Assembly: GCA_965200315.1 (NCBI GenBank)
Contig: OZ241362.1
Span: 5,280,001-5,344,000, forward strand
Source of the DNA: Candidatus Latescibacterota bacterium
Lineage (GTDB): Bacteria; Latescibacterota; UBA2968; UBA8231
Direction of reading: 5' to 3'
DNA: 64,000 bases
Below, in pieces: positions 6,305 to 62,791 of this stretch. A program made the translations under genes and the position numbers. The notes below the pieces were generated by a model. It saw only the letters and a program-made list of their open reading frames with translations, did no database searches and had not been told where the DNA came from. The first letter of the stretch is position 1. Each line of letters opens with the position of its first letter.

Positions 6305-6319
6305 GCATCCGAGGATAGC

Positions 6320-8647
6320 ATGTTGCAACGGGCATATTTGCTGACGCTGTTGGCGCTTTTACCCAGCGGGGAAACAGATGCCGGGACGCTGCTTATAAAC
6401 AGCCAAGACCAGTGGCGGCAATGGACTTTTCCACAAGGGGTGCTATCGCTAGCGGAAGATGGCAGCGTGGGACTGAGACATTTCCGACGCGATATAGATG
6501 CCGTCGCCGACGCGGCCGAATTCTTTCACCCAAATGCCAAGGGGAAAGAGGTACAGGGAGGAATCCGAGGTGCGGGCACCCACATCGACCAAGCGGCCCA
6601 TATTCTCGATGGCGCGGCTACTACTTGGTGGCAACCCAGCCAAGCGGCTCCGCTCGACGATTGGTGGGTCGAGATCGATTTAGGCCGCCTCGTCCAGGCT
6701 AAAAAGCTCCGGCTGACCTTTCCCGATATCGAGGGTGCGCGGCCGCTGCGCGAGTTTTCCGTTTTCGTCGCCGAGGGAACGCCTTTTCTCACCGGCCAAG
6801 ACGTTTTCCGCTACGACCGGGTGGGCGGCACGACCCAGCCCAGCCGGGAGACGGTGATAGAGTACGACCTTGGGACGCCGGAGTTGGGCAACGCTACTGG
6901 CGAGTATTTGGCGACTAGCGATACCCTAGAGTATATGTCCATTCAGTACGTGCGCGTCGTTGCTCACGCCAAGAGTCTGGATGCGGCACTGGCTGCGGTC
7001 GATGTCGAGGCCATAGGCGACAACATTGCCCCGGGGACTATCGAGCGGGGAGGCGTCATTCGGACTGGTCGCGACCCGCGCACTATCGCCAATATCATGG
7101 ATGGAACCGCAGCCACGTGGTGGTCCCTGACCTCGCGGGGCGACCTCGATTGGCGCGATAAAGGCGATTGGTTTGAGTGGGATCTGGGAGCCACCTTCTG
7201 GATTGATCAACTAACTATGGTGGAGCCGCCGCCGGGATTTGCCACACTGGGGGTGAATTCGTACCGGAATCAGTCCAGTTTTGAACTATTGACCTCGGAC
7301 GGCACGCCGATTCCCACCCAAGGGGGAGAGCGGCTTCAGAGTCCCGTTGATTACCAGTTGCTCAGCTTCGTCGATAACGAAACGCTGAGTAGCGCGGGCA
7401 TGAGAAACCGCAATTTTGATTTCCGCTTTCCCGCTCGCAAGGTGCGCTATCTGTTCTATCACCACGAATCTCCGGTCAATAGGTCCACCGTTTTCCATTT
7501 ATTCGAGATTTTCCTCTACGGCGCCGGTCATCCGGCCGAGGTGGTGATGACCGCGAATTTTATCGATCTGGAAGGAGCCAAAAGCCTGCGCCGGATGCGC
7601 TGGGAGGCGGAGACAACGGCCGAGACGCGCATAGAAATTCGTACGCGCACCGGTAATACGCTGGACGAAGAGATATTCTATTACGACAAAAATGGTCGCG
7701 AAGTTCCCAAAGGACGTTGGGACAAACTGCCGGCCAGCCAGAAATTGCCCGAAGTAAAAGTGGCGAAAGCCGGTGCCGACTGGAGTGCGTGGAGCTCGGC
7801 CTACAAGGAGTCAGGGGAAGTCTTCCGCTCGCCCACGCCGAGGAAGTTCGTCCAAATGGAGGTGCGTCTGCAGACCGAAGACCCCCAAGTGGCACCGACG
7901 CTGCGCGAGATTGCCCTCGATTTCGACGATCCGCTCATCGGCGGCGGGGTTTTCGCCCGCGTTTCTCCACGCGAAGTGGTCCTCGATTCGCTGACGGTTT
8001 TTACCTTCCGCCTTGGGGGTCGCACTAGACCGACTGATCGGGGTTTCAACCGCCTCGTGTTCGATTTGCCGAACTCCCTCGAAGGTGACGTGCAACTGCG
8101 GATAGGGGATCGCCGCGTTGAACCCTTGCAGGTGGAGTCCAGCGGCGATTCGGTCGTGATCGACTTACCCGAACAGGTCCGCGGGGACAGCATTGAAGTC
8201 AACTTGCCGTTGCGCCTGTTGGCCGATGCGGTTGCTTTCGACGCTTGGGTAAGCTCTACGACGCAGCCCGATGTTCGCCAAGGGATTCAGCCAGAAGCCC
8301 TAGGAGTTTTGACGGTGTTCGTACCCGAGATTGCCCAAGAGGAGCACCTCATCCGCGCATTGGAGGTGTCCTCGGCGATGGTCACACCCAACGGCGACGG
8401 CATCAACGACGGGCTGAAGCTACGCCTGTTAGTGGTAAAAACCACCGCCCAACCCGAGGTCGCCATTTACGATTTGAGTGGCTCATTAGTCGTTAGCACC
8501 GAACAGGTGGATCAAGCGCACTATGTGTGGAATGGTCGGGATGAGAGCGGTCTATTGTTGCCCCCCGGTATCTACATTCTGGACGCCAAGGTAGCGACCG
8601 ACACTGCAACGGAGCGGCGACAGCGTATCATCCATCTGGTCTATTAG
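6320..8647 (+). CDS. Exported tandem discoidin-like/FlgD-Ig protein (paralog type B)
   Basis: Signal peptide; two DGxxxTWW...(I/W)DLG discoidin-like units; TRTGN, WSAWS, TPNGDGIND, WNGRDESGLLLPPGIY; terminal LVY. Confidence 0.88.
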   Translation: MLQRAYLLTLLALLPSGETDAGTLLINSQDQWRQWTFPQGVLSLAEDGSVGLRHFRRDIDAVADAAEFFHPNAKGKEVQGGIRGAGTHIDQAAHILDGAATTWWQPSQAAPLDDWWVEIDLGRLVQAKKLRLTFPDIEGARPLREFSVFVAEGTPFLTGQDVFRYDRVGGTTQPSRETVIEYDLGTPELGNATGEYLATSDTLEYMSIQYVRVVAHAKSLDAALAAVDVEAIGDNIAPGTIERGGVIRTGRDPRTIANIMDGTAATWWSLTSRGDLDWRDKGDWFEWDLGATFWIDQLTMVEPPPGFATLGVNSYRNQSSFELLTSDGTPIPTQGGERLQSPVDYQLLSFVDNETLSSAGMRNRNFDFRFPARKVRYLFYHHESPVNRSTVFHLFEIFLYGAGHPAEVVMTANFIDLEGAKSLRRMRWEAETTAETRIEIRTRTGNTLDEEIFYYDKNGREVPKGRWDKLPASQKLPEVKVAKAGADWSAWSSAYKESGEVFRSPTPRKFVQMEVRLQTEDPQVAPTLREIALDFDDPLIGGGVFARVSPREVVLDSLTVFTFRLGGRTRPTDRGFNRLVFDLPNSLEGDVQLRIGDRRVEPLQVESSGDSVVIDLPEQVRGDSIEVNLPLRLLADAVAFDAWVSSTTQPDVRQGIQPEALGVLTVFVPEIAQEEHLIRALEVSSAMVTPNGDGINDGLKLRLLVVKTTAQPEVAIYDLSGSLVVSTEQVDQAHYVWNGRDESGLLLPPGIYILDAKVATDTATERRQRIIHLVY

Positions 8648-8700
8648 TCGGGCCGGGCGTCGCCTATGCAAAGCTGCTATCGATACGGGAAACCAGCGCG

Positions 8701-50899: not shown

Positions 50900-50991
50900 A
50901 GCTAGCGATTCTGGCCCGCGTTTTGCTTTTGCTTATTGAAAGGGTGCCCGATGGCGAGTAAATTGAACCTAGTAAGTAGGAGATGACAGGT

Positions 50992-51378
50992 ATGGCAGAA
51001 CGTTCTCCCCTCGACTATGGCGACCGCATTGGTCGCCTAGAAGGCATTATTGAGCAAATCAACGACCGCCTCAGCAACTTAGAGCACCGCTTAGGCAGTG
51101 TGAAGAGCAATTTAGAGGGTCGTATCAGCAGTGTAGAGAGCAACTTAGAGGGTCGTATCAGCAGCGTGGAGAGCAACTTAGGGGGTCGTATCAGCAGTGT
51201 AGAGAGCAATTTAGAGGGTCGTATCAGCAGCGTGGAGAGCAACTTAGGGGGGCGCATAGACCGCTTAGAGAACAGCCACCGGCGGGACTTTCGCTGGCTA
51301 ATTGGAGCGATGATAGGTATGTGGGCGACGATGATGGGCTTGCTGTTGACAGTGACCGTTAAGGTTTTTGCGGGCTAG
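50992..51378 (+). CDS. Bdr/DUF1640-like coiled-coil repeat protein with C-terminal TM anchor
   Basis: Five SVESNL(E/G)GRIS repeats and C-terminus RRDFRWLIGAMIGMWATMMGLLL. Alternative start at 50983. Confidence 0.85.
   Translation: MAERSPLDYGDRIGRLEGIIEQINDRLSNLEHRLGSVKSNLEGRISSVESNLEGRISSVESNLGGRISSVESNLEGRISSVESNLGGRIDRLENSHRRDFRWLIGAMIGMWATMMGLLLTVTVKVFAG
51097..51261 (+). repeat. Intragenic 33-bp tandem repeat (5 units)
   Basis: AG(T/C)GT(A/G)GAGAGCAA(C/T)TTAG(A/G)GGGTCGTATCAGC. Confidence 0.95.
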
Positions 51379-51470: not shown

Positions 51471-52922
51471 TCAGGCATCGTTGCGCTCTTCAAGCCAGTA
51501 GGCGTACAGCCTCGCTTGGTGCAGGTAGAACTTTAGGCGCACTGGTTTTTCAAATACCAGATCGTGCGAGTGCTTCCACTCGTATTTACCCCGTAGGCTG
51601 TCGCCGGTGAAGGGCGGCGGCTCCTCGCCGGGCACCCAAAAGCCGGGGAGGGGCCGGCCGGTCTCGGCGTCTTGGATCTCGGCGTAGATTTCGCCCCAGC
51701 GGGCATCGGCGTTGAGGTAGAGGTCTTGGCCGCGCCAGTGGAAGGGCCGGGTGACGAGGGTGGCGATTGCGTCGCCATCGATGGAGACGAAGCGGTCGGT
51801 CGGCAGCTTGGCCAGGCAAAGCGCACCCGGGTCGGCGAAGTGGCACTCTTCTACCCCGAGCCGGAACAGCTCCTTGCAGCGATTGAAGTGCTGGTACATT
51901 TCCACGCTGCCCGGCATGCGGAGGGCGTTGTAGTAAATCCAAATCTCACCGTCTTCGCGCACTAGCGGGGCACCGGCCATGAGGAGCTGGCTGGTGCCGT
52001 AGTTTTCCCCGTCCCAAGGTTCGATGCCGATAAAGGGCGTGCGGTCAGCCACGCGATCCCAAGTGTGCAGATCGCGCGAGACGGCCATTTCGATCTGGTT
52101 GATGCGGGTGAAGTTGGTGGCTGGCGGCGGGATGGCGCCGATGGGATTGAAAACGGTGGGGAAGCCGATGTACAGCCCCTGATAGGGCATGACGGCCATG
52201 TTGTAGATTTCGGCGTGGTAGTCTTGGTCATCGACGATTGGCGGGGTGATGTACGCGGGGTCGTCAATGAGGGTGCGGACGCGCTGGCGGCAGTTTTCCC
52301 AGTCGGTTTCGTCGGCGTGGAAGATGAGCCCGGGCGCGGTGAAGTGGTCGAAGTCGCGGCTGGTCGCTAGCCAGACCGAGCGGCCCCACTCGGTGGGTTG
52401 CTTGACTGTGGCGAGAAATTGCTCTGTGTGGGGGTCGTATGCGAACTGGGATTCGTCTTGGCTGGGGATGAAGGAGCTGGGGAGCGGGGTCCAAGCAAAG
52501 CCGTCCGGCGAGGTCGCGCCGCCGCGGCCGTCGGGTGCGTTGAACAGGGCCTTGTAACGGCGGTTCGGGTCGGAGTCGCGCTCGTCGCGGACGATGTGGT
52601 ACAGGCCCGGGCCGTTGGGGTCGCAGGCGATGTTGTTGTCTTTGCTGCCATTCCACTCGTATAGCCCCAAGGAGGGGTGTTCCCAGTGCTCGCCGTCGCG
52701 GGAGATGGCCAAGCGGGCTTGCGGTCCGTTGTACCACCATTCGTAGCGCGCCTCGTCCGGGTTCCACAAAGGTGCGCTGCGGCTCTGGATGCCGCCGGTG
52801 ATGAGAGGGCCGCACCGTTTGGGCGGATGCAGGGTGCGGGTAGTGCCTTGCTCGGAGACTAAGGCGCGGCTGTCGAGGAAGAGCTGGCGGTGCTTTTTGG
52901 GGTCGATGAGGTCGGTGGACAT
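51471..52922 (-). CDS. Glycoside-hydrolase-like beta-propeller protein
   Basis: ISRDGEHWEHP, TSPDGFAW, ATSRDF and VSRDLHTW motifs; similar to 23105..24577. Confidence 0.6.
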   Translation of the reverse strand: MSTDLIDPKKHRQLFLDSRALVSEQGTTRTLHPPKRCGPLITGGIQSRSAPLWNPDEARYEWWYNGPQARLAISRDGEHWEHPSLGLYEWNGSKDNNIACDPNGPGLYHIVRDERDSDPNRRYKALFNAPDGRGGATSPDGFAWTPLPSSFIPSQDESQFAYDPHTEQFLATVKQPTEWGRSVWLATSRDFDHFTAPGLIFHADETDWENCRQRVRTLIDDPAYITPPIVDDQDYHAEIYNMAVMPYQGLYIGFPTVFNPIGAIPPPATNFTRINQIEMAVSRDLHTWDRVADRTPFIGIEPWDGENYGTSQLLMAGAPLVREDGEIWIYYNALRMPGSVEMYQHFNRCKELFRLGVEECHFADPGALCLAKLPTDRFVSIDGDAIATLVTRPFHWRGQDLYLNADARWGEIYAEIQDAETGRPLPGFWVPGEEPPPFTGDSLRGKYEWKHSHDLVFEKPVRLKFYLHQARLYAYWLEERNDA

Positions 52923-52931
52923 GGTTATCAC

Positions 52932-53933
52932 TCATAGCGCAAAGGGTGGAATGCGGAGGAATGCGCCCCCTTGCCGGGCGGACTCTTGGGCCAACAGACA
53001 CGCTTGGGCGGTGGCGAACACCGAGCGGGTGGGGATGAAGAGGTCGGTGCCGCGTTCAATGGCGTCGATGAGGTTGGCGACAAACGCGCCGCTTTGGTCT
53101 GGGGGCAGGTCGGGGGTGTACGGGCCGCGCTCGTTGGTGGCGATGAGCAGGTGGTCGTCGGCATAGGCGCGCAGGTGGGCCGAGCCAGCCGTGCCCATGA
53201 CGATGAAGCGGGTGTCGCCAAACGAGGGCGCGGCTTGGGGCGTGAGCCAGTCGGCGGTGAGGGTTGCCAATGAGCCGTCGGATAGCGCGAAGGAAGCCTG
53301 CACGTGGTCGTCTAAGCGCGGCTCATCCGCGAACCGCTTGCAGGTGGCGAGGGCGTGGACGCCGACGCATTCGGCCCCGGTGAGCCAGCGGATTTGATCG
53401 ACGCCGTGGCAAGCGAGGTCGTGGAACGCGCCCGTGTACTGATTCGGGTCGAAATACCAAGCTGGGGCTGTGGCGCGGCGGATCTTGTGCGGGTGGGTGG
53501 AGATGAGGCTGGCGATGGTCCCGAGCGCGCCGTCGAGGATGGCTTGGCGCAGGGCGATAAACGGCGGATAGCTGCGCGAGGTGAACCACATGGATACGTG
53601 GATTGCGCTGGCGGCTACAGCGCGGCGCATGCGCTCCCAGTCGTCGAGTGTGCGGCACAGGGGTTTGTCGAGCAGCAGGTGAATGCCCGCGCCGGCGCAG
53701 GTTTCTACGAGTGCGGTTTTTTCGTGGTGGATCAAGCCTTCGAGGATGAGCTCGGGCCGGGCGCGGTCGATCAGGTCTTCCAAGGTGGCAAAGCGGGGGA
53801 TGGATGAATAGCGCTCGCAGAGCGCGTTGTCGTCTTCAACTAAGCCGACGATCTGGCCGTTCGCCGCCTGTAAGGCGGATTGGATCATGCCGCCGATGTG
53901 GCCGTAGTGGACGCCCATGATGCCGATGCGCAT
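52932..53933 (-). CDS. Gfo/Idh/MocA oxidoreductase
   Basis: IGIMG..H, HLLLDKP and GAFHDLACHGVD motifs. Confidence 0.88.
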   Translation of the reverse strand: MRIGIMGVHYGHIGGMIQSALQAANGQIVGLVEDDNALCERYSSIPRFATLEDLIDRARPELILEGLIHHEKTALVETCAGAGIHLLLDKPLCRTLDDWERMRRAVAASAIHVSMWFTSRSYPPFIALRQAILDGALGTIASLISTHPHKIRRATAPAWYFDPNQYTGAFHDLACHGVDQIRWLTGAECVGVHALATCKRFADEPRLDDHVQASFALSDGSLATLTADWLTPQAAPSFGDTRFIVMGTAGSAHLRAYADDHLLIATNERGPYTPDLPPDQSGAFVANLIDAIERGTDLFIPTRSVFATAQACLLAQESARQGGAFLRIPPFAL

Positions 53934-54034
53934 GATGAATTCTCCGGGTGAGGTGTACGCGGGAAAATAAGACGCGGCGGATTCATGCGCTACGGCTGCT
54001 TACGTATATTCAGGCACCAGAAAGGAGCCGAACC

Positions 54035-54250
54035 ATGTCTGATTGGCTTACTACGAGATTGCCGAATGTTCCACCGTTTGCTCCGCCTCTGCCCGGTTTA
54101 GCCAGCTTCCAGTGGTGGGCCGTACTGCCGCGCCGTCGACATCGCACCAGTAGATGGCACGATCACGCTGGGATGTATCTCAAGGCTGCATACTTGGCGG
54201 CGGGGAATGAGCGCGACAATCTGTTTTGGGGGAGGATTCACAAGGAGTAG
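54035..54250 (+). other. Short ORF or gene remnant of unknown type
   Basis: Strong AAAGGAG RBS before ATG; 71 aa; no recognised family. Confidence 0.3.
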
Positions 54251-54405
54251 GGATTGCTTCTCAAAGGGCAGCATGTAGCGACTCTGATAAGTGGCCCTCG
54301 GACGTCTAGCCGGCACGTGCTGCACGTGCTGCATTGGGATGGCAGACCTCCCATGCCTAACGGCCAGTGAGTTACTGTCGTGTACTTAGGCTCGAAAAAT
54401 TTTTC

Positions 54406-54433
54406 TTGACACGTTATTTTTATGGCGTACTGT
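54406..54433 (+). promoter_or_regulatory. Sigma70-like promoter upstream of the dynamin operon
   Basis: TTGACA-16 bp-TACTGT preceded by an A/T tract (UP-like). Confidence 0.45.
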
Positions 54434-54602
54434 AAGCGGTGCTTTTGCGGCATGTTCTGTGTCGCCGGTTTGGAGAACAAACGAGAACATGGTTGAGCAT
54501 TCCATATCAGAAAGAGGTCTTGCTGCGATGACCGGGCTCTATCAGGGGCTTGGAGTCGCCGCCTCTTCAATGTTGCATAAATTGTTAAAAAACAACATCT
54601 TA

Positions 54603-54616
54603 CCCCCCCCCCCCCC
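54603..54616 (+). repeat. C14 homopolymer tract
   Basis: 14 consecutive C, about 200 bp upstream of the first dynamin gene. Confidence 0.9.
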
Positions 54617-54816
54617 GATTTTTCTGGATCACTAAGCACTAACATTCTCTACTCTCAGCACGGGCCGACGGATCGCGTTAGGACACTGCGATTCGTGCTG
54701 GCCTTCGTCCGTACGGCCGTCGCCGTAGTCCGCCATGGGAGCAAAGCGGGTAGAGCAGTGAGAAAATCAAGAGGTTCGGCCATCAGTTCTAACTTGCACA
54801 AAGGAGGATACGGAAC

Positions 54817-56484
54817 GTGAAGACGGAACAACGAGACTCAACGGCATTGAGGACACTTCGCGAGGTTGCCTCGCGGTGGGACTTGGAAATATTGGCTGAT
54901 GATCTCCAGCAGATTACGAGCGATGACGCGGTGCAGATAGGCTTTTTGGGGGACTTCAGTAGCGGCAAGAGTACGCTGATCAACGAGCTGGTAGGCGTGG
55001 AGGATCTCATGCCAGCGCAACTCGAGCCTTGCACAGCACGGGCCGGACAGGTGATATCGACCCCTTCTCTTGAAGAGCCAGAGTATTTTCGCGTGGACGA
55101 CGAGGATGAGCAGACTGCAATCAGTCGACCTGATTTTGATGATCTCGCCCGCGGGCATACGCCGGGACGGCCGCTTGTGCGCCTCCCATCCCACTCCGGG
55201 TTTCCAGCAGGATTCGTATTCCTCGACACTCCGGGACTATCGACGCTCATTGAAGAGCACACGGAGGTCACATTGGGAGAGCTACCCTTCGTAGATGCCG
55301 CTGTGATCTGTATGGATATCCGCAAGGGTGGGCTAACGAGTACCGTCACCGACTTTCTCACTTCTCCCGGCGTCCGCCATCTGCAGCATCGCTTTCTCAT
55401 CGCGCTCACATTTGCCGACCAGCTTCCAGATTCTGAACGTGCGGTGGTAGCCGAGAAGACTGCTGACACGCTGGCTCAGACCATCGGCTGCGCGAAATCA
55501 GAAGCCGAGGGCCGCATTGTAGTCGTAAGCGCCGGGCCAGAGGCAGTCGCGCGCGACGTCAGTGCTTTACGCACCGCCATCCACGAGGTGTTCGAGAAGC
55601 GCAAGGCGTTTCTCACGGATGAACGACAACACCGCGCCAGCGTTCGCCTAGTGCCGCGTGCAATCACACTGCTGGAGCATATGCGCGATGGCCTGCTGGA
55701 ATCGAAAGAAAATTTTGCGGCGCGCAAGACAGAGGCGGATGAGCAACGGACGAGGCTGGACCAAGAGCTACGCAAGCAACGGCAACGCTTCGATAAGTCT
55801 CGCGCTGAGCTCCACCGGGATGTGAGTGCAATATGCGACCACTATCAGCCTCTGTTTGCCGCTGCGTCGAACGATCTTGCTATAGAACAGGTCAGCGGCG
55901 AGTTCTCCTCGGCACTCGCAACAAAGGTTAGCGATCATTTTGCGAGCTTGGGACAACAATGGGATAACCATGTTGGGGGGATTGACGCGGAGATCCAACG
56001 CTTGCTGAGGGACATCAACAAAATTGTGAACTTGGGGGCTACCATCGCTACAGGAGCTCTGGCTGTCGCGATAAATCCCGCCACCGGTTTGGCAGCAAGT
56101 GCCGCGGAGATGACAGGTGGAGCGGTGCTGCGCGCCGGAGCCGCCGAAGGGTTCAAGAGAATTGGAACAGGATTACTTGCCACCTTGCATGCTATTAATC
56201 CGATCAACATCGTTAGTGACTTTGTTGGGGAGTGGTGGAAAAATAAGCGCATCGCCGAGCCAATGGATCATATTCGCATGAAGTTTTCGGCGCAAGCGGC
56301 ACGAGAGATCGAGACATACTTTGAGTCCGAAATATTTCAGCCCCTAGAGCGCGAGCATAAAGAAGTACAGAGCGTACTTTCTCAGATTGAATCCGAGCGC
56401 CGAACCGATATCACCGATCGCAATGCCAAGGTGTCGCGTATCGACGCCGATAGCGCTCGGCTCCGAAAGGTTAGTCAGCCATGA
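54817..56484 (+). CDS. Bacterial dynamin-like GTPase 1
   Basis: G1 GDFSSGKS, G2 PCTA, G3 DTPG, G4-like TFAD; coiled-coil stalk; Gly/Ala-rich hydrophobic paddle (LGATIATGALAVAI); GGAGG RBS. Confidence 0.88.
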   Translation: MKTEQRDSTALRTLREVASRWDLEILADDLQQITSDDAVQIGFLGDFSSGKSTLINELVGVEDLMPAQLEPCTARAGQVISTPSLEEPEYFRVDDEDEQTAISRPDFDDLARGHTPGRPLVRLPSHSGFPAGFVFLDTPGLSTLIEEHTEVTLGELPFVDAAVICMDIRKGGLTSTVTDFLTSPGVRHLQHRFLIALTFADQLPDSERAVVAEKTADTLAQTIGCAKSEAEGRIVVVSAGPEAVARDVSALRTAIHEVFEKRKAFLTDERQHRASVRLVPRAITLLEHMRDGLLESKENFAARKTEADEQRTRLDQELRKQRQRFDKSRAELHRDVSAICDHYQPLFAAASNDLAIEQVSGEFSSALATKVSDHFASLGQQWDNHVGGIDAEIQRLLRDINKIVNLGATIATGALAVAINPATGLAASAAEMTGGAVLRAGAAEGFKRIGTGLLATLHAINPINIVSDFVGEWWKNKRIAEPMDHIRMKFSAQAAREIETYFESEIFQPLEREHKEVQSVLSQIESERRTDITDRNAKVSRIDADSARLRKVSQP

Positions 56485-58391
56485 GACGCGGTCTTAAAAT
56501 TTTACACACGGTGAAGAAGAAAGTGGAAGCTGCTACCAAGAAGGTTACAGCAAAGGCACACATTGAGGCACTATCACCTCCCCTACAGGAAGCCACCCCT
56601 AAAACAGCTCTCAACGCAACCATTGAATCTCTCCTCGCCTTGCGATCCGTTCGAGACCAGTCTGCCGATGCTGGGCTTGATCTATCGACCGACATCGCGC
56701 AGAAGTTGACTTCCCTAGAGGAGGGCTTGATCGACCACCTCGCCGAGCAACGCGAGCATCAAGACGGTATCGGTCTGTTGACCGTATCGGTGGTCGGCGA
56801 CTTCAACTCGGGTAAATCGACTTTCATCAATGCGCTGCTGGGAATGGATGTGTGCCCGGTAGGCGACGAGCCAACGACCGCATCCATAACGCACTTCGTC
56901 CATGGCGACCAAGAACGTATTGAGCGGAAATTGGAGGACGGAACATATATCCCGCTGGACAAGTCGGAATATCGCACATTGGCTCAGCATAAGAAAGAGG
57001 GCGACAGCGGGCCGTACGCCTTTCGCATTGCAGTAAATTCCCCGGTTCTCGATCATATTCGACTTGTCGATACGCCCGGGTTTAATGCCCCGCCCCCAAA
57101 TACGAATGATACCAAGGTGACCGAAGAGGCTGTCACGGAATCTGACGTGCTGTTTGTGCTCATGGATGCCAATAAGGGCAACCCATCGGATACGCTGTTG
57201 GATCAGTTGGATCGGCTGTCGCAAGATTCGACTAACGAGTCTCGTCAACCCGCATTTCTCTTGCTCAACAAGGCTGAAGGACTGCCGCCATCGCAACGTA
57301 GAGAAGTAACGCGTTTCTGCAAGGAGCGGCACGGCGATCTATTTCGCGATGTCGTGCCTGTTTCTGCGTTGCAGTTGATTGAAGCCAAAGACGAGGAACC
57401 ACTTGATGCGCTGGACATCGCAATGCAGCACATGCGATCTGCTTACAAGGCGCGAGTTCCATTTCAAAAAAATATCTCGGCTGAACTGATTGTACAGGAT
57501 TACAGGATCGATATCAGCGGCAACGTGTACGATGTGCCCGCCTCATCGGATTTTGAACTGGCATCCCGCGAACAACTTGCCGAGATGGTGAAGGACGTGG
57601 CAGCAGAACGACACGTCTTGCTTGAACAGCAGTTTCAGCGCAACACCTTGCAATTGCGGGAAGACTGGCAAACGACGCTTTCTGATTTGGAGCAAGCACT
57701 GGAAAGTGCGCTAAGTGAGTCTTCCGGCGGAAGTGATGATGGTGATGTAACCAAACATAAGGAGACGGTACTTGAAGCTATCGAAGAAGCGAAGCGGAAT
57801 ACGATCAATCTTGTCAATGAGATTTTTCAGGGGCTATCTGAGGAAATAGTTGTCAAAAGCAATCGAACTGAAGAGGGCTTTTTTTCGGATACTGAATATT
57901 ATCAAAATCATGTTTACTTAGACAAAGCACCTGACGTAGTGGATAATCACGATAATTGGCGTCGTATATCTGGCATATATCAAGGGCTACTTTCATACTT
58001 AAAAAAGTCTCTTGACATCAACTTAGACTTCACACCCCAAGAAATTGCTGAGTACCTGAAGGAAGAATTTCTTGAGCGAATTCGCGGCACAGTTAAAGCA
58101 GTAGAGCAAGTTTTTCAGGAAGATGATGAATCGGATAAAAGAGGGAATTTTTGGCAGTACGAATATTATGACGAATTTGGAAGAAACGAGCACTTTAACC
58201 GTATGATCTCACATTTTGAGTCGCATGGCGACGACAATCTCAGTGTTTCGATCATTCAAAAGGTGATAGATTATCTGCGGGAAGCCGTCATTAGCACTGC
58301 TGGAAGAAATCAATCACAGGTTGCGGAACGAGCTGAAGAATTGAGGAGACTCCAACAGCGAATCAATGAGATGAAGGAGCATACGCTATGA
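56481..58391 (+). CDS. Bacterial dynamin-like GTPase 2
   Basis: G1 GDFNSGKS, G2 PTTA, G3 DTPG, G4-like NKAE; acidic helical C-terminal half; ATGA overlap. Confidence 0.88.
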   Translation: MRRGLKILHTVKKKVEAATKKVTAKAHIEALSPPLQEATPKTALNATIESLLALRSVRDQSADAGLDLSTDIAQKLTSLEEGLIDHLAEQREHQDGIGLLTVSVVGDFNSGKSTFINALLGMDVCPVGDEPTTASITHFVHGDQERIERKLEDGTYIPLDKSEYRTLAQHKKEGDSGPYAFRIAVNSPVLDHIRLVDTPGFNAPPPNTNDTKVTEEAVTESDVLFVLMDANKGNPSDTLLDQLDRLSQDSTNESRQPAFLLLNKAEGLPPSQRREVTRFCKERHGDLFRDVVPVSALQLIEAKDEEPLDALDIAMQHMRSAYKARVPFQKNISAELIVQDYRIDISGNVYDVPASSDFELASREQLAEMVKDVAAERHVLLEQQFQRNTLQLREDWQTTLSDLEQALESALSESSGGSDDGDVTKHKETVLEAIEEAKRNTINLVNEIFQGLSEEIVVKSNRTEEGFFSDTEYYQNHVYLDKAPDVVDNHDNWRRISGIYQGLLSYLKKSLDINLDFTPQEIAEYLKEEFLERIRGTVKAVEQVFQEDDESDKRGNFWQYEYYDEFGRNEHFNRMISHFESHGDDNLSVSIIQKVIDYLREAVISTAGRNQSQVAERAEELRRLQQRINEMKEHTL

Positions 58392-60373
58392 AGGATTTTC
58401 AAGATTACCAAACGCGCCAAGCTACTCTCTGTGAGTGGTACGACCGCGTTATTGAGAACAATACACTGCTACAGGCAGACGTGGAGGCACTTCAAGAGGC
58501 AAAAGCCAACCTGCAAGACGGTCGCTTTGTTGTAGCGGTCTGCGGCGAGATGAACAGCGGGAAATCGACCCTGCTCAACGCTCTGCTTTTCTCGGAGGAG
58601 GTGCTGCCGAGTCACGTTACGACCATGACGGCCAAGATCGCACTCATGGGAGGGGACGAGACTGAGCGCATTGAGGCCACGCTGTACACACCTGACGAGT
58701 TTCGCCAGGTGGTGGAAGCCAGCAAGCCGGATGAACGCTCCGCACAGGAACTAGCTGAGGCGCGGAAGACTGCTCGGGCGGAGGGGCTCAAGGAGTCTGA
58801 CCTGCTCACCACCCCGGCACAGGTCAAGGCCGAGGAGGGTCTCGATAAGCTCGTTCAGTTTGCGGCGGTATGCAGCCGCGGAGGCATATATAGTGCGTAT
58901 GTCAACTGGGTACAGTTGTGGGCGGATCGCCCGTGGCTCCATCAAGTGACAGTCGCCGATACTCCCGGAACCAATGATCCGAACCCGGAGCGCGACAAAA
59001 TCACCCGCGAGTGGATCCAGCGTGCCGATGCTGTGGTGTACGTCACTTTTGCTGGGCAAGCGGGCATGACCGGTTCAGATGTGAAATTTATCGACGAGCA
59101 CTTGGCACATATCAGTCCCCAGCGGCGCATCATCGCGGTGAACAAATGCGACGAGCAGCTCGACAAAGAGCCCATTCGGAGCCACATTCAGAATATCCGG
59201 GACAGCGGCGACTTGAGGATGAAGTCTCTGTTCGGAGATGACGACCAGATCGTACTCGTCAGTGGCCTCGGTGCGCTTATTTCCGCCATGCAGGAAGCCG
59301 GTCGTCCCCTGTCCGAGGATTTGAAATGGCATGAACGGAAACTATCTGATAGGGGCTATTTGGATCCAGAGCAGCACGGTATCGAGCAACTCCGCAGTGT
59401 CATTGAACGACGAATCATCGTCACCAAAGGCGATGGTATTATCGAGGCGCATCAAAGGCGCTTGGACAGCGTCTTTGAAAGTGCCGATGCGGGTATCTCC
59501 CAAGACATGGCGTTATTGACGGCTAATCTCAATGCTGTCAACGCATCGAAGGAAGAGCGCCGCGAAGAAGCTGAGCGGATAAAAGAAAATATCGCTTCGA
59601 TAGATTCAGTGGTCAGGAACGCGAAGGGTACGTTTGCAAAGGATCTTGACGAAGCACAAGGTCCTCTGCAAGAAAGCATTAGTGAAACGGTTCGTAAGGT
59701 CTCGCAAGGGATCGTCGCCGACCTTAGCGATGTGACAAATATCGACAATATGGCAAATCAAGCGGTATGGAGCATCGAGAGCAATCTGTATAGGGAGCGT
59801 AATGTTCTCGCGAAAGCTATCAGAGATATTGTGAGTAAAATCGAAGGTACGCTCAATCAGGCCGAGAATGAACTCTCCGATAAATTTTTGTCAAGCGGAT
59901 TAACGGTTGACGAAGGGCCACAGTATCACTTACTGCCGGTCTCGTCTCATACCATTTGCAAGGAAGCAGAAGCGGAACTGATCAACAAGCTTGACCGCGA
60001 GACTCTGGGGAACGCTGTGAGCGACGCAACTACTTTTTGGCAGTGGCTTTTTGATACAAAGAAAGGCAGAAGTGCTGCTATTCAGCGGTTGGAAGCTGAA
60101 CTTGGAAAGCGCCTGAAAAAGACTCTTAAGGGACTCTCTGAAGAGACTAGCCGAGAGTTGCAGAAGCACGGAGAAGAGGCTCTTCAGACAATGCAAAAGA
60201 GGGGTCGGCGCAATCTCGAAGAGCGGCATAAGCTATTAAAAGAGTTGGAGAAAGAGATCTCGTCCGATGAGAACAAGCGGCAAGAGATTGACGAGCAGCT
60301 TGTGGAATTAGATCGGCGAAAACTGCAAGTGGACGAACTTAAAGCTGAATATGACCTAGCGAGGAGTATCTAA
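58388..60373 (+). CDS. Bacterial dynamin-like GTPase 3
   Basis: G1 GEMNSGKS, G2 TMTA, G3 DTPG, G4 NKCD; long coiled coils; FWQWLF amphipathic tip; ATGA overlap. Confidence 0.9.
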   Translation: MKDFQDYQTRQATLCEWYDRVIENNTLLQADVEALQEAKANLQDGRFVVAVCGEMNSGKSTLLNALLFSEEVLPSHVTTMTAKIALMGGDETERIEATLYTPDEFRQVVEASKPDERSAQELAEARKTARAEGLKESDLLTTPAQVKAEEGLDKLVQFAAVCSRGGIYSAYVNWVQLWADRPWLHQVTVADTPGTNDPNPERDKITREWIQRADAVVYVTFAGQAGMTGSDVKFIDEHLAHISPQRRIIAVNKCDEQLDKEPIRSHIQNIRDSGDLRMKSLFGDDDQIVLVSGLGALISAMQEAGRPLSEDLKWHERKLSDRGYLDPEQHGIEQLRSVIERRIIVTKGDGIIEAHQRRLDSVFESADAGISQDMALLTANLNAVNASKEERREEAERIKENIASIDSVVRNAKGTFAKDLDEAQGPLQESISETVRKVSQGIVADLSDVTNIDNMANQAVWSIESNLYRERNVLAKAIRDIVSKIEGTLNQAENELSDKFLSSGLTVDEGPQYHLLPVSSHTICKEAEAELINKLDRETLGNAVSDATTFWQWLFDTKKGRSAAIQRLEAELGKRLKKTLKGLSEETSRELQKHGEEALQTMQKRGRRNLEERHKLLKELEKEISSDENKRQEIDEQLVELDRRKLQVDELKAEYDLARSI

Positions 60374-60862
60374 ATGGATAAGATGAACACTGTGATTTTG
60401 GTCGCCGGTACTGCGATCATTGTAGGCAGTACTGTTATATGGTATAGGCATCGCCGTCCCATAAGTCCTTCATCCCCTCCATCCCCTTCATCCCCTCCAT
60501 CCCCTCCATCCCAAGAGCAATGCTCCTTCGTCCAACAACGGATGGAGACCTACCGCGATGAGATGCTCCGCTACGAGCTTGGCCTCGAATACCATCGTCG
60601 TGGGGCATCGCGGGCTGTTTTGCAGAAGTTGCTCGGCGGTGGCGAGGAAGTACTGGCCATGCCGATTCTGTATCTCAATTCCGACGAATGGCGATGGGAG
60701 CAACAACAGCTCCAAGAAGCGGTGGAAGCTGCGCTTGGCGAGCTCGGTCTTTCTGTTCCCCCGGATATTCGCGAGCCGACCACCCAAGCAGCACGCGCCT
60801 GCGAGCAATGGGCCGCTACCCGAGCCAAACGGCTATTCGACGAAGAACTAGGCAGCGATTAA
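60374..60862 (+). CDS. N-terminally membrane-anchored protein with Pro/Ser linker
   Basis: TM VILVAGTAIIVGSTVIWY then RHRR and a (PSS/PPS)x5 linker; ATG directly follows the TAA of GTPase 3. Confidence 0.75.
   Translation: MDKMNTVILVAGTAIIVGSTVIWYRHRRPISPSSPPSPSSPPSPPSQEQCSFVQQRMETYRDEMLRYELGLEYHRRGASRAVLQKLLGGGEEVLAMPILYLNSDEWRWEQQQLQEAVEAALGELGLSVPPDIREPTTQAARACEQWAATRAKRLFDEELGSD
60467..60511 (+). repeat. 9-bp tandem repeat (5 units)
   Basis: CCT(T/C)CATCC x5. Confidence 0.9.
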
Positions 60863-61027
60863 ACGGTTCGCCATCTTGTACACGGAAGATACCTGAAGAT
60901 ACGGCGATCGTCCTATAAGCTCCCCTTTTGATCCACAACAAGGGGTGATCATTGTGCCAGCAGAATTGTGGGGGCCGAGCGGCAGTGCTGTCTTTCGCTT
61001 AGCACTCGGCACCGGGGCAAACGCGGC

Positions 61028-62791
61028 CTATCCCGACAACTTCCGCACGTACACATAATACGGCGCGATGGTCCGCTCGGCGAGGTCGTGAAACGAGGCG
61101 TAGAGCCGGTCCGGGCCAGCGGCGAGGTCCAGTTCAAAACAAGCACTGGCTGCGGCCGGATCGATTTCTTGCTGAAAATTTTGCCCGCCGATGGTTAGCT
61201 GGCCCCAGCCCAAGGCGAGGGCGACCCCACCCTCGTAAGCTGGCGCATTTTTCGCTTGGATGCCGGGGCGATACCAGCCGCTGTCGTCGCCTTCAATCCC
61301 CGCAGTAAGCGCATAGCCGGTTTCCTCGGGCCAGCGCCGCAGCTCAATCTGGTAGCGGCCCGCCTCTTTGACATCGACGGCCCAAAAACCACTCGTTATT
61401 TGCCCGGCGCGGACTTGACGCTGATTCCAGACGGCGCTGCACGCCTCATTGCGGATGTCGTGGGTGGTGAGTTTGGCAGGCCGGTCGTCCCCGCCCAAGG
61501 CAATCGGCTCGTCGCGGTCGAATTGCTCGGAGATGAGCTCCCACCAGTCATCATACTCAGCGCGCAGGTCGGCGACGACGACGGGATGTGCGTCGGCGAT
61601 GTCTTGTCGCTGGCCGGGATCTGTGCCGAGGTCGTAGAGCGCGCGGCCGTCGATGAGCCGCCACTTGCCTTTCATCACCGAGCTCTTGCGCCATTTGACC
61701 GGATGGGCCACGCGCTGGGTGTCGCAGACGTTGATGCGGTCGGACAAAGCTGAATCGTCTGCGCCTTGCAGCAGCGGCACTAGGCTCTGGCCGTGGAAGG
61801 TGCGGCCGGTTGGGACTTCGACTCCGCACAAGTCGAGCAGGGTCGGCATGAAATCCACGTAGCAGGTCAGCGCGTCGATGTCGCGGCCGCCAGCGATGTG
61901 CCCGTTGGGATAGCGGATGAGGAAGGGGACGCGGTGGCCACCTTCGTACGGGGAGCCTTTTTTGCCGCGCATGCCGGCGTTGTAGCTGCCCGGCCCTTCG
62001 CGGGGGAACTGATCGGCGTCTAGCTCGACGCCGGTGGCTGTGCCGTTGTCGGTCATAAAGATGAGGATGGTGTTGTCGGCGATACCCAACTCGTCGAGCG
62101 TGGCCTGCAAGCGGCCGAAGTTTTCGTCGATGTTGGTAATCATGCCGTAGAAGCGGGCGCGTTCTTCGTGTGGGGTGGTATTGCGGTATGGCGCGACGTA
62201 GTGCGGCTTTACGTTGAGCGGCCCGTGCGGCGCGTTGGTGGCGATGTAACAGAAGAAGGGCCGGTCGGCGTTTTCTGCGATAAAGCGCTGGCCCTCGCGG
62301 AAGAACACGTCCGTGCAATAGCCCTCATACGGAGTAGGGACGCCGTTTTTGAAGTAGGTGTCGTCAAAGTAGTCGTTGCCCCAAGGGTCGCCCGTGTTGC
62401 CGATGCCGCCGCCAGCGTGGTACACAGATTCGGCAAAGCCGCGCTCGTGCGGCCGGTAGGGCGGGCTGTCGCCGAGGTGCCACTTGCCGAAGTGCCCGGT
62501 GCGATAGCCCGCGCCAGTGAGCGCGTCCGCGAGAGTCCATTCGTCGGCGCGCAACAGCGAGCGGCCGCCAATAGTGTGCCAGACGCCGGCACTGTTGCAG
62601 TAGTGGCCGGTGAGCAGGCCGGCGCGGGTGGGGGCGCAGGTGGAGCCGACGTGGTAGTCGGTGAAGCGCACGGCATCTTGGTGGAAGCGGTCGAGGCAAG
62701 GCGTGTGGATCGCGCTGTTGCCGTGGCAGCCCAAGTCGCCGTAGCCTTGGTCGTCGGTGAGGACGAAGACGATGTTGGGGCGCGGGGCCAT
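61028..62791 (-). CDS. Arylsulfatase
   Basis: PNIVFVLTDDQGYGD, CAPTRAGLLTG, GKWHLG, DNG and YEGGHRVP motifs. Start at MAPRP. Confidence 0.93.
   Translation of the reverse strand: MAPRPNIVFVLTDDQGYGDLGCHGNSAIHTPCLDRFHQDAVRFTDYHVGSTCAPTRAGLLTGHYCNSAGVWHTIGGRSLLRADEWTLADALTGAGYRTGHFGKWHLGDSPPYRPHERGFAESVYHAGGGIGNTGDPWGNDYFDDTYFKNGVPTPYEGYCTDVFFREGQRFIAENADRPFFCYIATNAPHGPLNVKPHYVAPYRNTTPHEERARFYGMITNIDENFGRLQATLDELGIADNTILIFMTDNGTATGVELDADQFPREGPGSYNAGMRGKKGSPYEGGHRVPFLIRYPNGHIAGGRDIDALTCYVDFMPTLLDLCGVEVPTGRTFHGQSLVPLLQGADDSALSDRINVCDTQRVAHPVKWRKSSVMKGKWRLIDGRALYDLGTDPGQRQDIADAHPVVVADLRAEYDDWWELISEQFDRDEPIALGGDDRPAKLTTHDIRNEACSAVWNQRQVRAGQITSGFWAVDVKEAGRYQIELRRWPEETGYALTAGIEGDDSGWYRPGIQAKNAPAYEGGVALALGWGQLTIGGQNFQQEIDPAAASACFELDLAAGPDRLYASFHDLAERTIAPYYVYVRKLSG

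Follow-up and report, generated by a model that had tools for sequence, protein, structure and literature searches.

The genome of a sponge-associated bacterium of Candidatus Latescibacterota carries, within a stretch of 64,000 nucleotides that was analysed as a whole (contig OZ241362.1, positions 5,280,001 to 5,344,000; referred to here as the window), three genes for dynamin-like proteins (DLPs) followed by a gene for a small membrane protein. The question raised by this locus is whether the four genes belong to a known DLP system, in particular Eleos/LeoABC, or form a system of their own, and what such a system would do. The original prediction described three consecutive DLPs of 555, 636 and 661 aa joined by ATGA overlaps, and the positions, strand and junctions of the open reading frames all agree with it. 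The features of the cassette are as follows:

54603..54616, + strand: poly-C tract of 14 nt, 214 nt upstream of the W1 start
54774..54816, + strand: conserved 5' leader at the left border of the duplicated unit, carrying the Shine-Dalgarno sequence AAGGAGG
54817..56484, + strand: W1 (DLP-1), 555 aa, GTG start, dynamin-like GTPase
56481..58391, + strand: W2 (DLP-2), 636 aa, paddle-less, of the Campylobacter DLP2 type
58388..60373, + strand: W3 (DLP-3), 661 aa, canonical G1-G4 motifs
60374..60862, + strand: W4, 162 aa, single-pass membrane protein

ATGA overlaps occur at the W1/W2 and W2/W3 junctions, while W3 and W4 abut as TAA-ATG. The strong Shine-Dalgarno sequence lies 7 nt 5' of the W1 GTG, and the final ~40 nt of the leader are near-identical between the two cassette copies of this genome. 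A search of 53500-61200 against Rfam gave no family at E≤1. The poly-C tract may be a length-variable (phase-variable) element of the promoter region; only three poly-C/G runs of at least 12 nt occur in the whole 5.36-Mb genome, and a 13-C run is found at -189 in L021, a cassette that occupies this genomic site in a different genome, with no such run in the other five upstream regions examined. The DNA contig of run X3 terminates at 54616. In three metatranscriptome runs from one study every bin of the cassette was covered, contigs spanned the W2/W3 and W3/W4 junctions, and the upstream intergenic bin was nearly empty, with the DNA run being flat. As assembled contigs from a single study, with DNA carry-over possible, these data hint that the cassette is transcribed.

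The block had been described as richer in AT than its surroundings, and this holds, with a G+C of 0.526 against 0.599 for the remaining window. A similar deficit of ~8-10 points was measured in all six other loci, and W2 is the lowest-G+C gene of the cassette at every locus measured. Because the deficit recurs in all of these loci, those of Spirochaetia hosts included, it probably reflects, in part, the amino-acid composition of the stalks rather than foreign origin alone. The flanking genes are catabolic and unrelated to the block, as was also foreseen, encoding a GH5 cellulase, a GFO/IDH/MocA oxidoreductase, a sulfatase and an RraA-like aldolase.

All three GTPases proved to be full-length DLPs with intact dynamin G domains, W2 by its fold (Foldseek) and W1 and W3 by near full-length profile alignments. 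Dynamin_N matched W1, W2 and W3 at 39.5, 80.6 and 69.9 bits, respectively (E = 7.8e-10, 1.7e-22 and 3.4e-19; Pfam gathering cut-off 27), and each has a P-loop (GDFSSGKS, GDFNSGKS and GEMNSGKS) and the DTPG motif. W2 has NKAE as its G4 motif and W3 has NKCD, and the G4 of W1 (T-F-A-D) is degenerate. The three proteins are anciently diverged from one another. W1, with homologues in about 100 clusters, is the only one of them with hydrophobic windows; these form a conserved Ala/Gly-rich hairpin (about residues 400-446), a putative membrane paddle judging from its sequence, and in the W1 family alignment (A7) the P-loop, DTPG, P421, G435 and N461 are invariant. The predicted model of W2 (pLDDT 80.6) has 5owv_C as its best Foldseek match (5.9e-14), with IniA third and BDLP and mitofusins also matched, and phmmer likewise found 5owv_C (5e-12). 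W3 matched 5owv_A, the Campylobacter DLP1, by phmmer (3e-12; W3 residues 35-454 to 151-559); it carries a long charged C-terminal coiled coil, and no hydrophobic paddle, TM-like window or N-terminal assembly domain was found in it.

The closest solved relatives are therefore DLP1/DLP2 of Campylobacter jejuni (PDB 5OWV/5OXF; Liu, Noel & Low, 2018), W2 resembling DLP2 and W3 resembling DLP1, and both sets are heterotypic with one subunit lacking a paddle. The Campylobacter pair is reported to tether membranes as a 2:2 tetramer, and the 119-aa N-terminal assembly domain of DLP1 to be essential for its binding to DLP2 (PMC6104087). In contrast, W3 lacks this domain (the alignment starts at chain residue 151, with the P-loop at residue 53 of W3), and the cassette, in which the DLP2-like gene precedes the DLP1-like gene, adds a third DLP and an anchor. 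The mycobacterial iniBAC operon (IniA/IniC) also combines several DLPs with a non-DLP partner gene, and IniA (6j72) is the closest solved structure to W1 by sequence, albeit weakly (E 1.2e-3). However, iniBAC has two DLPs, similarity to the cassette is confined to the G domain, and no search that was run related IniB to W4. The fused double DLP DynA of Bacillus subtilis, which has a role in phage tolerance and is reported to delay lysis by phage through tethering or sealing membranes, is a possible model, but it is a single polypeptide encoded by a housekeeping gene, and the NCBIfam DynA model gave 15-35 bits on the cassette proteins against a cut-off of 1600.

The abutting protein of 162 aa has the N-terminal TM helix and Pro/Ser linker that had been expected of it. 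In W4, one hydrophobic helix (~residues 4-25) is followed by YRHRR, by the linker, which is encoded by 9-nt tandem repeats (60467-60511), and by a conserved C-terminal helical domain of ~115 aa that is predicted to be cytoplasmic; the Arg-rich stop-transfer signal predicts an N-out/C-in topology, and a TM helix followed by Arg/Lys is present in all family members inspected. No match to W4 was obtained in Pfam, NCBIfam, PADLOC or PHROG, and its predicted model (pLDDT 90.8) matched no fold (Foldseek best E 0.5; VIA best Z 5.1). Its relatives comprise 34 close clusters, and a search of 1.84 billion proteins gave 48 representative clusters at E≤1e-3. In its own genome the domain is confined to the two cassettes. 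W4 is thus a family that no library searched names. The sequences already show a division of labour, the hydrophobic hairpin being found only in W1 and the TM helix in W4.

Eleos (formerly 'Dynamins'; LeoBC and LeoA; Millman et al., 2022) and LeoABC of ETEC (Michie et al., 2014) are likewise multi-DLP operons with intact P-loops, and Eleos resembles the cassette in its accessory distribution and in having some defence-type neighbours. The two-gene Eleos is reported to depend on both P-loops and to confer protection from jumbo phages (bioRxiv 10.1101/2022.05.11.491447). The cassette might be a divergent Eleos that has gained a further DLP and a separate anchor, in which case its mode of action would be precisely that of Eleos; the best PADLOC match is indeed LeoA for W1 (60.6 bits, 3.8e-17, residues 131-540, model positions 103-548 of 559) and LeoBC for W3 (55 bits, 1.9e-15, full length, model positions 64-567 of 601). 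PADLOC's default thresholds are presumably permissive, and an automatic run might label the W1 and W3 pair Eleos. However, two genuine Eleos pairs of the same genome scored 364 and 253 bits with the LeoA model and 323 and 247 bits with the LeoBC model, 4-7 times above the cassette, where W1 reached 37-61 bits (LeoA) and W3 51-55 bits (LeoBC). The same models also match in control genomes (14/14 at E≤1e-3, 10/14 at E≤1e-6) as well as other, unrelated DLPs encoded in this genome (B1, C1 and D1, at 1e-9 to 1e-14), the NCBIfam LeoA/HP0731 model gave 20.4 bits against a cut-off of 325, and the LeoA structure 4AUR was not among the PDB sequence matches of W1-W3 at E≤0.01. True Eleos proteins align with one another from end to end (E 1e-27 to 1e-31), but their similarity to W1-W3 lies within the G domain only (≤135 aa). 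The organization differs too: the gene order is reversed, with the LeoA-like gene first, the GTPase subunits lack a TM helix, three DLPs and a separate anchor gene stand where Eleos has two DLPs (or one split), and the W4 family is absent from the descriptions of Eleos consulted. A divergent Eleos is in our view highly improbable; as had been anticipated, the cassette does not score as a standard Eleos/LeoABC, and it stands as a distinct system that does not belong to that family.

The order of three DLPs and a membrane protein was predicted to recur elsewhere, and it does. A second cassette in the same genome (C1:1434719-1441225) is identical gene for gene at 78, 63, 74 and 77% aa, and blastn of the two copies delimits, at 83% identity, a duplicated unit from 54774 to 60860, running exactly from the leader to the W4 stop. 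Among eight loci in named genomes, five contain the entire W1-W2-W3-W4 order (Latescibacterota and Spirochaetia MAGs), two are cut by contig ends and retain W3-W4 (one being a Poribacteria contig), and one is decayed. Two metagenome cassettes, L042 and L049, encode orthologues of DLP1-DLP2-DLP3 in the same order (23-40% identity) and then a protein of 154 or 174 aa with an N-terminal TM helix, that of L042 aligning with the anchor profile (hhalign 69.5%, E 4e-5, 111 columns). The accompanying generalization that bacterial DLPs usually occur as pairs needs qualifying, as 13 triples and one quadruple were present among the 36 DLP arrays found in 37 metagenome loci, which had been gathered with a motif from the second DLP as seed. 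The genome studied here has at least 15 DLP genes, namely the two cassettes, a third triple unrelated to them, two Eleos pairs and two singles.

The proposal that the block was acquired horizontally is borne out by its sporadic distribution, by comparison of its chromosomal site and by the borders of the duplicated unit, which mark an accessory, laterally moving unit. W4 was found in 3/24 congeners and in 5/167 other genomes of the phylum, a W2 orthologue in 0/176 and 1/301 genomes of two other lineages sampled, and host labels of the cassette cover three phyla, a fourth, Gemmatimonadota, being named by a source. The cassette was not found in the plasmids, phages and viral contigs searched. 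It occupies a variable hot-spot: at the same site it is absent from all five complete congeners, being directly replaced by a Type IIG R-M gene in one, with a weak PIN-domain gene, only an unknown ORF, or nothing at the site in one congener each, and a DDE transposase elsewhere within the interval in one of the five. The cassette genes evolve faster than their neighbours (dN/dS 0.26-0.76, where the flanking genes of the same genome pairs gave 0.09-0.20), which is also compatible with relaxed constraint.

Whether this implies a role in defence, as had been suggested, was addressed through neighbouring genes. PADLOC was given flank ORFs without a clear metabolic Pfam match; defence-type neighbours were HEC-01A/B near L017 and L021, which count once because they share one syntenic context, PDC-S15 and HEC-03B in L022, and a WYL regulator in L020. 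L042 is accompanied by a ThsB-type TIR-like protein, an NYN nuclease and an IS66 transposase, with no PADLOC match at E≤1e-15. Among the ORFs passed, there was no match near this window's copy, the second copy, L015, L019 or L049, and only 3/12 distant triple loci had one. The link to defence is therefore no more than suggestive, with PADLOC genes near some copies and none near that of the window.

Several copies lie among catabolic genes with no defence gene near, and in L022 genes for PspA/IM30 and a YbjN-like protein occur ~1.7 kb downstream of the last gene of the cassette, on the opposite strand. Together with the large number of DLP genes in this genome, this would suit an accessory machine for membrane remodelling or repair with no conflict role, serving vesicles, tethering or envelope repair in a sponge-associated lineage with expanded DLP families; the known DLPs LeoABC, IniA/C and DynA have been linked with vesicles, fission and membrane repair (PMC4159319 and further abstracts). 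DLP expansion for lineage-specific membrane biology is a live alternative. A purely physiological machine of this type seems rather unlikely to us, however, as the cassette is very sporadic even inside one genus while spread across phyla, sits in a hot-spot where sister genomes have R-M and toxin-like genes, and shows a higher rate of evolution than the flanking genes, features that conflict systems display more typically than physiological ones.

A further possibility concerns W2. A helix-turn-helix domain at the N-terminus is annotated in 26 of 120 W2 homologues among the matches listed, and was verified in 7/7 tested; the fused domains are HTH_23/28/29, and weak Terminase_5 (gpP-like) matches fall on the same stretch. 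Since the corresponding tail of W2 here (residues 1-39) is Lys-rich and disordered, W2 might bind chromosomal or plasmid DNA that the DLPs position at the membrane in a CrfC-like, partition or uptake system. Against such DNA handling, which we think very unlikely, the W2 of this window has neither the helix-turn-helix nor a relic of one, the tree of W2 shows several losses (at least 6-8 changes, to which start-codon calling adds noise), the CrfC model gave 16-26 bits against a cut-off of 1146, and no conserved replication, partition or conjugation genes adjoin the cassette. The fused domain could also be a mere autoregulator.

We therefore favour, tentatively and at slightly less than even confidence, an accessory conflict or stress system against phage or invading DNA, in which the four products would form a GTP-driven hetero-oligomer of the inner membrane. 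W1-W4 would assemble at its cytoplasmic face, where W1 would put its own hydrophobic paddle into the membrane and the paddle-less W2 would act as bridging subunit. The changeable N-terminal module of W2 (Lys-rich tail or helix-turn-helix) may bind an anionic partner, either DNA or acidic lipid, the DNA-binding step being extrapolated from relatives because the helix-turn-helix is absent here without relic. W3, also paddle-less, would be tethered to the membrane by W4 through its cytoplasmic domain, the W4 gene being translationally coupled to that of W3. Upon attack by phage or invading DNA, the complex would remodel, tether or reseal the membrane in a manner functionally akin to DynA and Eleos. 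The cassette may thus represent a new membrane-based machine for defence or repair.

An open reading frame (ORF) listing of the window confirmed four plus-strand genes between 54817 and 60862 (the cassette), which encode three dynamin-like proteins (DLPs), named W1, W2 and W3, and a small single-pass membrane protein, W4 (the anchor):

54817–56484, plus strand: W1, DLP of 555 aa, GTG start
56481–58391, plus strand: W2, DLP of 636 aa
58388–60373, plus strand: W3, DLP of 661 aa
60374–60862, plus strand: W4, anchor of 162 aa

The ATGA overlaps claimed for this operon are present at the W1/W2 and W2/W3 junctions, W4 directly abuts W3 as had been described (TAA followed at once by ATG), and AAGGAGG lies 7 nt ahead of the GTG of W1. 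A dynamin-type G domain had been predicted in all three larger proteins, and Pfam Dynamin_N matched each of them above its gathering score of 27 bits (W1, 39.5; W2, 80.6; W3, 69.9 bits). The P-loops are intact (GDFSSGKS in W1, GDFNSGKS in W2 and GEMNSGKS in W3), with GxxxxGKS and DTPG found in all three, and as G4 motif W3 has the canonical NKCD, W2 the near-canonical NKAE and W1 T-F-A-D. The AT-richness and catabolic surroundings put forward in the original prediction were likewise found, with a G+C content of 0.526 in the cassette vs 0.599 in the rest of the window and flanking genes for a GH5 cellulase, a GFO/IDH/MocA oxidoreductase, a sulfatase and an RraA-like protein. Adjoining the GFO/IDH/MocA gene is an ORF of 486 aa (51471–52931, minus strand) with no Pfam or PADLOC match, and near it is encoded a 131-aa coiled-coil protein (50983–51378, plus strand), whose matches are of the low-complexity and repeat type only.

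W1, W2 and W3 are complete DLPs of three different kinds. Their mutual identity is only 23–26% and is confined to the G domain. The helical trunks of W1 and W3 are indicated by profile-based, near-whole alignments to the LeoA and LeoBC profiles, respectively, and the helical neck and trunk of W2 by full-length alignment of its model to 5owv_C, 6j72, 2j69 and mitofusins. This AlphaFold model (pLDDT 80.6) shows a disordered Lys-rich tail (residues 1–39), a neck of two helices, the G domain and long hairpins of helices, and a Foldseek search returned Campylobacter DLP2 (5owv_C, 5.9e-14), IniA, BDLP, DLP1 and mitofusins; matches of W2 to known profiles are confined to its G domain. W1 is the only DLP of the three to have a hydrophobic Ala/Gly-rich hairpin (residues ~400–446), which is kept along with the P-loop and DTPG in a family alignment of 18 sequences reaching down to 22% identity, distant members of which have a canonical TKxD as G4. 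No hydrophobic paddle or tip was found in W2 or W3 by sequence scan. W3 (residues 35–454) aligns with residues 151–559 of Campylobacter DLP1 (5owv_A, 3e-12). In that protein a 119-aa N-terminal assembly domain clasps helix 1 of DLP2 (accessible text of PMC6104087), whereas W3 is without it, having ~45 residues before its P-loop and an alignment to 5owv_A that begins only at chain residue 151.

The anchor W4 consists of one transmembrane (TM) helix, the basic stretch YRHRR, a Pro/Ser linker and a helical domain predicted with a pLDDT of 90.8. By the positive-inside rule a basic stretch after a TM helix places the following domain on the cytoplasmic side, and judging from its sequence the helical domain of W4 is predicted to be cytoplasmic, like the signal-less DLPs. 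No relatives of W4 were detected in Pfam, NCBIfam, PADLOC, PHROGs or PDB sequences (0 profile matches at E ≤ 1). For the domain, the best Foldseek match in the PDB had an E of 0.5, the best Z of a wide VIA-align search was 5.1, which is noise level for helical models, and the ESM Atlas gave no usable match; such absence of fold matches is no proof that the fold is new. An exhaustive profile search of 1.84 billion proteins recovered only 48 representative clusters of the anchor family (E ≤ 1e-3), with no anchor–DLP fusion among them. Complex prediction of W3 with W4 residues 44–162 gave 0.16 and 0.00 vs a mark of 0.32, values which count neither way on binding. The Pro/Ser linker is encoded by four to five 9-nt tandem repeats (60467–60511), and in a metatranscriptome contig of sequencing run X5 a deletion at 60471 removes 9 nt in frame, which means that linker length varies within the population.

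The closest described system is Eleos/LeoABC, and the cassette does not score as a standard member of it when set against the true pairs of its own genome. Two genuine Eleos-type pairs are carried there (on contig C1), which made an internal calibration of the Eleos models possible:

C1:178750–182777, plus strand: Eleos-type pair, longer LeoBC-like gene first, LeoA-like gene second
C1:2832642–2836552, minus strand: Eleos-type pair, longer LeoBC-like gene first, LeoA-like gene second

With the PADLOC LeoA model (PDLC03839) the LeoA genes of these pairs score 364 and 253 bits, and W1, aligned over nearly the whole profile, just 60.6 (hmmscan) or 36.6 bits (six-frame search). With the LeoBC model (PDLC03841) the true partners score 323 and 247 bits and W3 55 or 50.7 bits in separate searches. 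Control genomes also gave matches to the Eleos models, 14 of 14 at E ≤ 1e-3 and 10 of 14 at E ≤ 1e-6 (the latter for PDLC03841), and unrelated DLPs of the source genome match them at 1e-9 to 1e-14. The PADLOC default thresholds are presumably permissive, so that an automatic run might tag W1 and W3 as Eleos. In NCBIfam NF041922 (LeoA/HP0731; cut-off 325 bits) W1 scores 20.4 bits, but the true LeoA genes also fall below the cut-off, at 40 bits, and the PADLOC calibration is therefore the informative one. True Eleos proteins match each other over 512–669 residues (E 1e-27 to 1e-31), whereas their matches to W1–W3 cover at most 135 residues and the G domain only. LeoA (4AUR) was absent from the PDB sequence matches of W1, W2 and W3 at E ≤ 0.01. 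Eleos is described, in the accessible text of the sources, as a two-gene operon with LeoBC followed by LeoA, or as leoC-leoB-leoA with one DLP split (PMC4159319; bioRxiv 10.1101/2022.05.11.491447); the cassette differs in having three unsplit DLPs and an anchor, with the LeoA-like gene first. Given the low LeoA and LeoBC scores, the G-domain-only similarity to the true pairs and the different gene content and order, identity with Eleos was rejected.

The cassette proteins are also far from two other DLP families, scoring 15–35 bits with NCBIfam NF052648 for the fused double DLP DynA (cut-off 1600) and 16–26 bits with NF007368 for CrfC (cut-off 1146). Bacterial dynamins have been described as acting alone, in pairs or as fused pairs. 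According to the accessible text of PMC6104087, pairing is the rule for most bacterial DLPs, and some cyanobacteria have up to 8 DLPs. A search with a W2 G-domain pattern, taken from an alignment of W2 homologues bearing a helix-turn-helix, fetched 37 metagenome loci (L042–L078) with distant DLPs only. This sample is biased towards W2, and of its 36 DLP arrays 13 are triples and 1 is a quadruple. At one of these loci (L059) an IetA-like ATPase directly follows the array, and at another (L052) a Type IIG restriction-modification gene lies 3 kb off. The source genome has at least 15 DLP genes in total. These include a third, unrelated triple of 738, 786 and 796 aa (C1:3051383–3060942, plus strand), followed by three genes without known family (316, 214 and 338 aa), the 338-aa gene that closes the array having a strongly hydrophobic N-terminus; the array has no anchor-family domain and a weak LeoBC match in its first DLP only. 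Single DLP genes were seen at C1:4375349 (G+C 0.36) and C1:4314652.

Conservation of the gene order had been proposed as a check on the unit, and the order is indeed kept elsewhere, namely in a second copy in the same genome (copy A), entire (W1-W2-W3-W4) in five of eight named-genome loci, and in the distant DLP triples of loci L042 and L049. Copy A (C1:1434719–1441225) has the same layout, its proteins of 568, 672, 660 and 163 aa being 78, 63, 74 and 77% identical to W1, W2, W3 and W4, respectively. The unit common to both copies in blastn extends from 43 nt upstream of W1 through the W4 stop codon. On either side of copy A are relics, 180–200 nt long, of the 5′ end of the GFO/IDH/MocA gene and of the sulfatase gene, so that it derives from a cassette at the sulfatase-adjacent site. 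The Lys-rich N-terminal extension of its second DLP survives as a relic, read in another frame, in a 307-nt gap between its first and second DLP genes (C1:1439212–1439518), and a 14-residue tandem duplication near an N-terminus was also observed in this copy.

The eight named-genome loci, found with the anchor alignment, belong to five Candidatus Latescibacterota, one Candidatus Poribacteria and two Spirochaetia metagenome-assembled genomes (MAGs), and in two of the eight, cut by contig ends, W3-W4 is kept. A decayed copy, L019 (G171:C11, ~5400–10450), has neither W1 nor residues 1–166 of W2; a Myb-like gene and an AAA_25 gene lie upstream of it and an rve-family integrase/transposase downstream. 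L042 and L049 each have one orthologue of W1, W2 and W3, ordered as in the window and 23–40% identical (for W3 and its L042 orthologue, 29% over 628 aa, E 7e-78), directly followed by a protein of 154 or 174 aa that carries a TM helix at its N-terminus and a basic stop-transfer sequence. For the small protein of L042 the alignment to the anchor profile extends over the entire soluble domain (hhalign 69.5%, E 4e-5, 111 columns), and for that of L049 over the first helix only. Conservation of the order at 23–40% identity indicates that the layout is old and that W1–W3 are ancient paralogues, not recent duplicates. The cassette is kept across a range from 80% to about 25% identity.

The N-terminal head of W2 is its most changeable part. 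Among the matches listed, 26 of 120 W2 homologues have an HTH_23/28/29 domain at residues ~30–76, before the G domain, and the helix-turn-helix was confirmed in all seven of those tested. Examples are P0194, P0211, P0224, P0235, P0241 and P0252, and weak Terminase_5-like matches also occur; in two other W2 relatives (P0301 and P0302) the G domain is followed by a phosphopantetheine-binding (ACP-like) domain. On a 95-row W2 tree the long N-terminus is found in 20 of the 27 rows of one clade and in 4 of the 24 rows of W2's own clade, requiring at least 6–8 changes, a count to which start-codon calling adds noise. In P0205, one of the four long forms in W2's clade, the extension is Lys-rich and lacks a helix-turn-helix domain. 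No helix-turn-helix relic was found in W2 of the window, which has the Lys-rich tail instead.

In three metatranscriptomic runs, all from one study, 84–91% of the sampled words were present. The metatranscriptome contigs cover every cassette bin with a word-depth above that of the flanks and span the W2/W3 and W3/W4 junctions, the upstream intergenic bin is nearly empty, and a DNA run is flat. As these contigs are assembled and come from one study, this is a hint of expression only. No riboswitch (crcB motif) or other RNA element was found within 53500–61200 (0 Rfam matches at E ≤ 1, permissive filters), and sigma-70 promoter and terminator scans did not rise above shuffles. A poly-C tract of 14 nt (54603–54616) lies at −214 of the operon, and the L021 copy has 13 C at −189. 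Poly-C/G-type runs of at least 12 nt number only three in the whole genome, and short-read contigs break at this tract, which may be a phase-variable element.

The distribution of the cassette is sparse. The anchor was found in 3 of 24 congeners and in none of 16 genomes from other genera in the same class; across the phylum, 5 of 167 other genomes have it, all belonging to one family. An orthologue of W2 (E ≤ 1e-40) was found in none of 176 genomes of the phylum of the Poribacteria MAG, whose own contig is too short to hold W2, and in 1 of 301 genomes of the Spirochaetia class sample, that one being a genome from which a cassette locus had itself come. In all five complete cassette-less congeners the GFO/IDH/MocA and sulfatase orthologues (88–93% identical) lie 2.8–8.0 kb apart, and a DUF7133/GSDH gene is found in this interval in four of them; it is missing in the source genome (window 53934–54816). 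The sulfatase-adjacent slot, defined as the position of the cassette in L017 and L021, and its interval (L030–L034) were occupied as follows:

G009: slot empty
G010: slot empty; DDE transposase between the DUF7133/GSDH and GFO/IDH/MocA genes
G011: slot with a weak PIN-domain gene
G001: slot with a Type IIG restriction-methylase fragment and ORFs without known family
G005: no DUF7133/GSDH gene in the interval, only a 294-aa ORF without known family

The GFO/IDH/MocA–sulfatase interval is thus a variable hot-spot in the genus. The four cassette genes have dN/dS values of 0.26–0.76, compared with 0.09–0.20 for the sulfatase, RraA, GFO and DUF7133 genes in the same genome pairs and at similar dS. 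The low G+C of the cassette, with the same internal pattern, recurs in hosts of 59% and 67% G+C, the latter Spirochaetia. As the deficit is found in every host it is at best weak evidence for foreign origin, and its use as clean proof of such origin was rejected. No matches were found for W1 among plasmids (E ≤ 1e-10), for W4 among phages or for the anchor alignment among IMG/VR viral contigs, and PHROGs gave one weak P-loop match to the cassette. Neither direct nor inverted flanking repeats hinting at a transposon were seen around it.

The defence neighbourhood of the cassette copies is mixed. For Eleos/LeoABC, frequent co-localisation with known defence systems has been reported (60%). PADLOC candidates lie near three (L017, L021 and L022) of the eight close copies (window, copy A, L015, L017 and L019–L022), a small and partly non-independent count, since L017 and L021 represent one context, that covers part of the flank ORFs. 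At L017 and L021 a HEC-01A/B pair lies three genes downstream; no such pair follows the RraA gene in the source genome. At L022, PDC-S15 is directly downstream with a HEC-03B/NsnB-like ATPase nearby, and between the two, on the other strand, is a PspA/IM30 gene. Only a WYL regulator is near L020, and among the ORFs scanned there is no defence-type neighbour for the window copy, copy A, L015, L019 or L049. Downstream of the distant L042 are an NYN nuclease, a ThsB-type TIR-like protein (Pfam) and an IS66 transposase, and 3 of 12 distant triple loci have PADLOC matches. Directly upstream of the cassette in L015 are four consecutive ORFs without Pfam families (L015:97–3849, G+C 0.48), one with a weak ZorA/MotA-like PADLOC match (2e-6).

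Of the roles considered, we take as the likeliest, though no more than quite possible, that the cassette is an accessory system for conflict or stress, which would tether or reseal the membrane under attack by phage or mobile elements. The main rival is a membrane-remodelling role outside conflict, which we consider rather doubtful; the copies without any defence-type neighbour sit easily with it, and the HEC-01, PDC-S15 and HEC-03B/NsnB-like neighbours sit more easily with the conflict reading. The sequence establishes four translationally coupled genes, three complete DLPs whose nucleotide-binding motifs are intact, a conserved hydrophobic hairpin in one of these, and a single-pass membrane protein inherited along with them. 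W1–W4 would form a heteromeric, GTP-driven assembly at the cytoplasmic face of the membrane, in which W1 would bind the membrane through its putative paddle, W3 would be held there by W4, and W2 would bridge W1 and W3 as DLP2 does in Campylobacter, its variable head perhaps contacting DNA or an anionic surface. A fuller version of the conflict reading, and as a whole an unlikely one, is a new class of anti-phage or anti-plasmid system in which one subunit senses invading DNA at the inner membrane (through the helix-turn-helix in many lineages, or here the polybasic tail). It would set off a GTP-driven process in which the other two DLPs remodel or seal the membrane, one inserting its paddle and the other held by the adaptor, this being a dedicated protein with a previously unseen fold.

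Neither an operon of three DLPs and a dedicated anchor nor a helix-turn-helix-fused DLP was found described in the accessible full-text literature searched, and in the sponge-symbiont literature searched the word 'dynamin' has 0 occurrences. The cassette is not categorically new, since its parts are DLPs and it probably follows a logic similar to that of Eleos and DynA. As far as could be searched, three points would be new to the field, namely the helix-turn-helix–dynamin fusions, an anchor domain that matches no named family, and triple DLP arrays that are apparently common in environmental bacteria (13 of 36, in a biased sample). What emerges is a compact four-part system with a division of labour legible in its sequence, comprising a putative paddle DLP, a probable bridging DLP whose head appears to be swappable (DNA-binding or basic), a paddle-less DLP and a private anchor, with the two true Eleos pairs of the same genome as its natural 'controls'. 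If the defence reading is true, dynamin-based immunity would extend beyond Eleos and DynA, and the cassette would help in finding out how systems of this sort detect infection.
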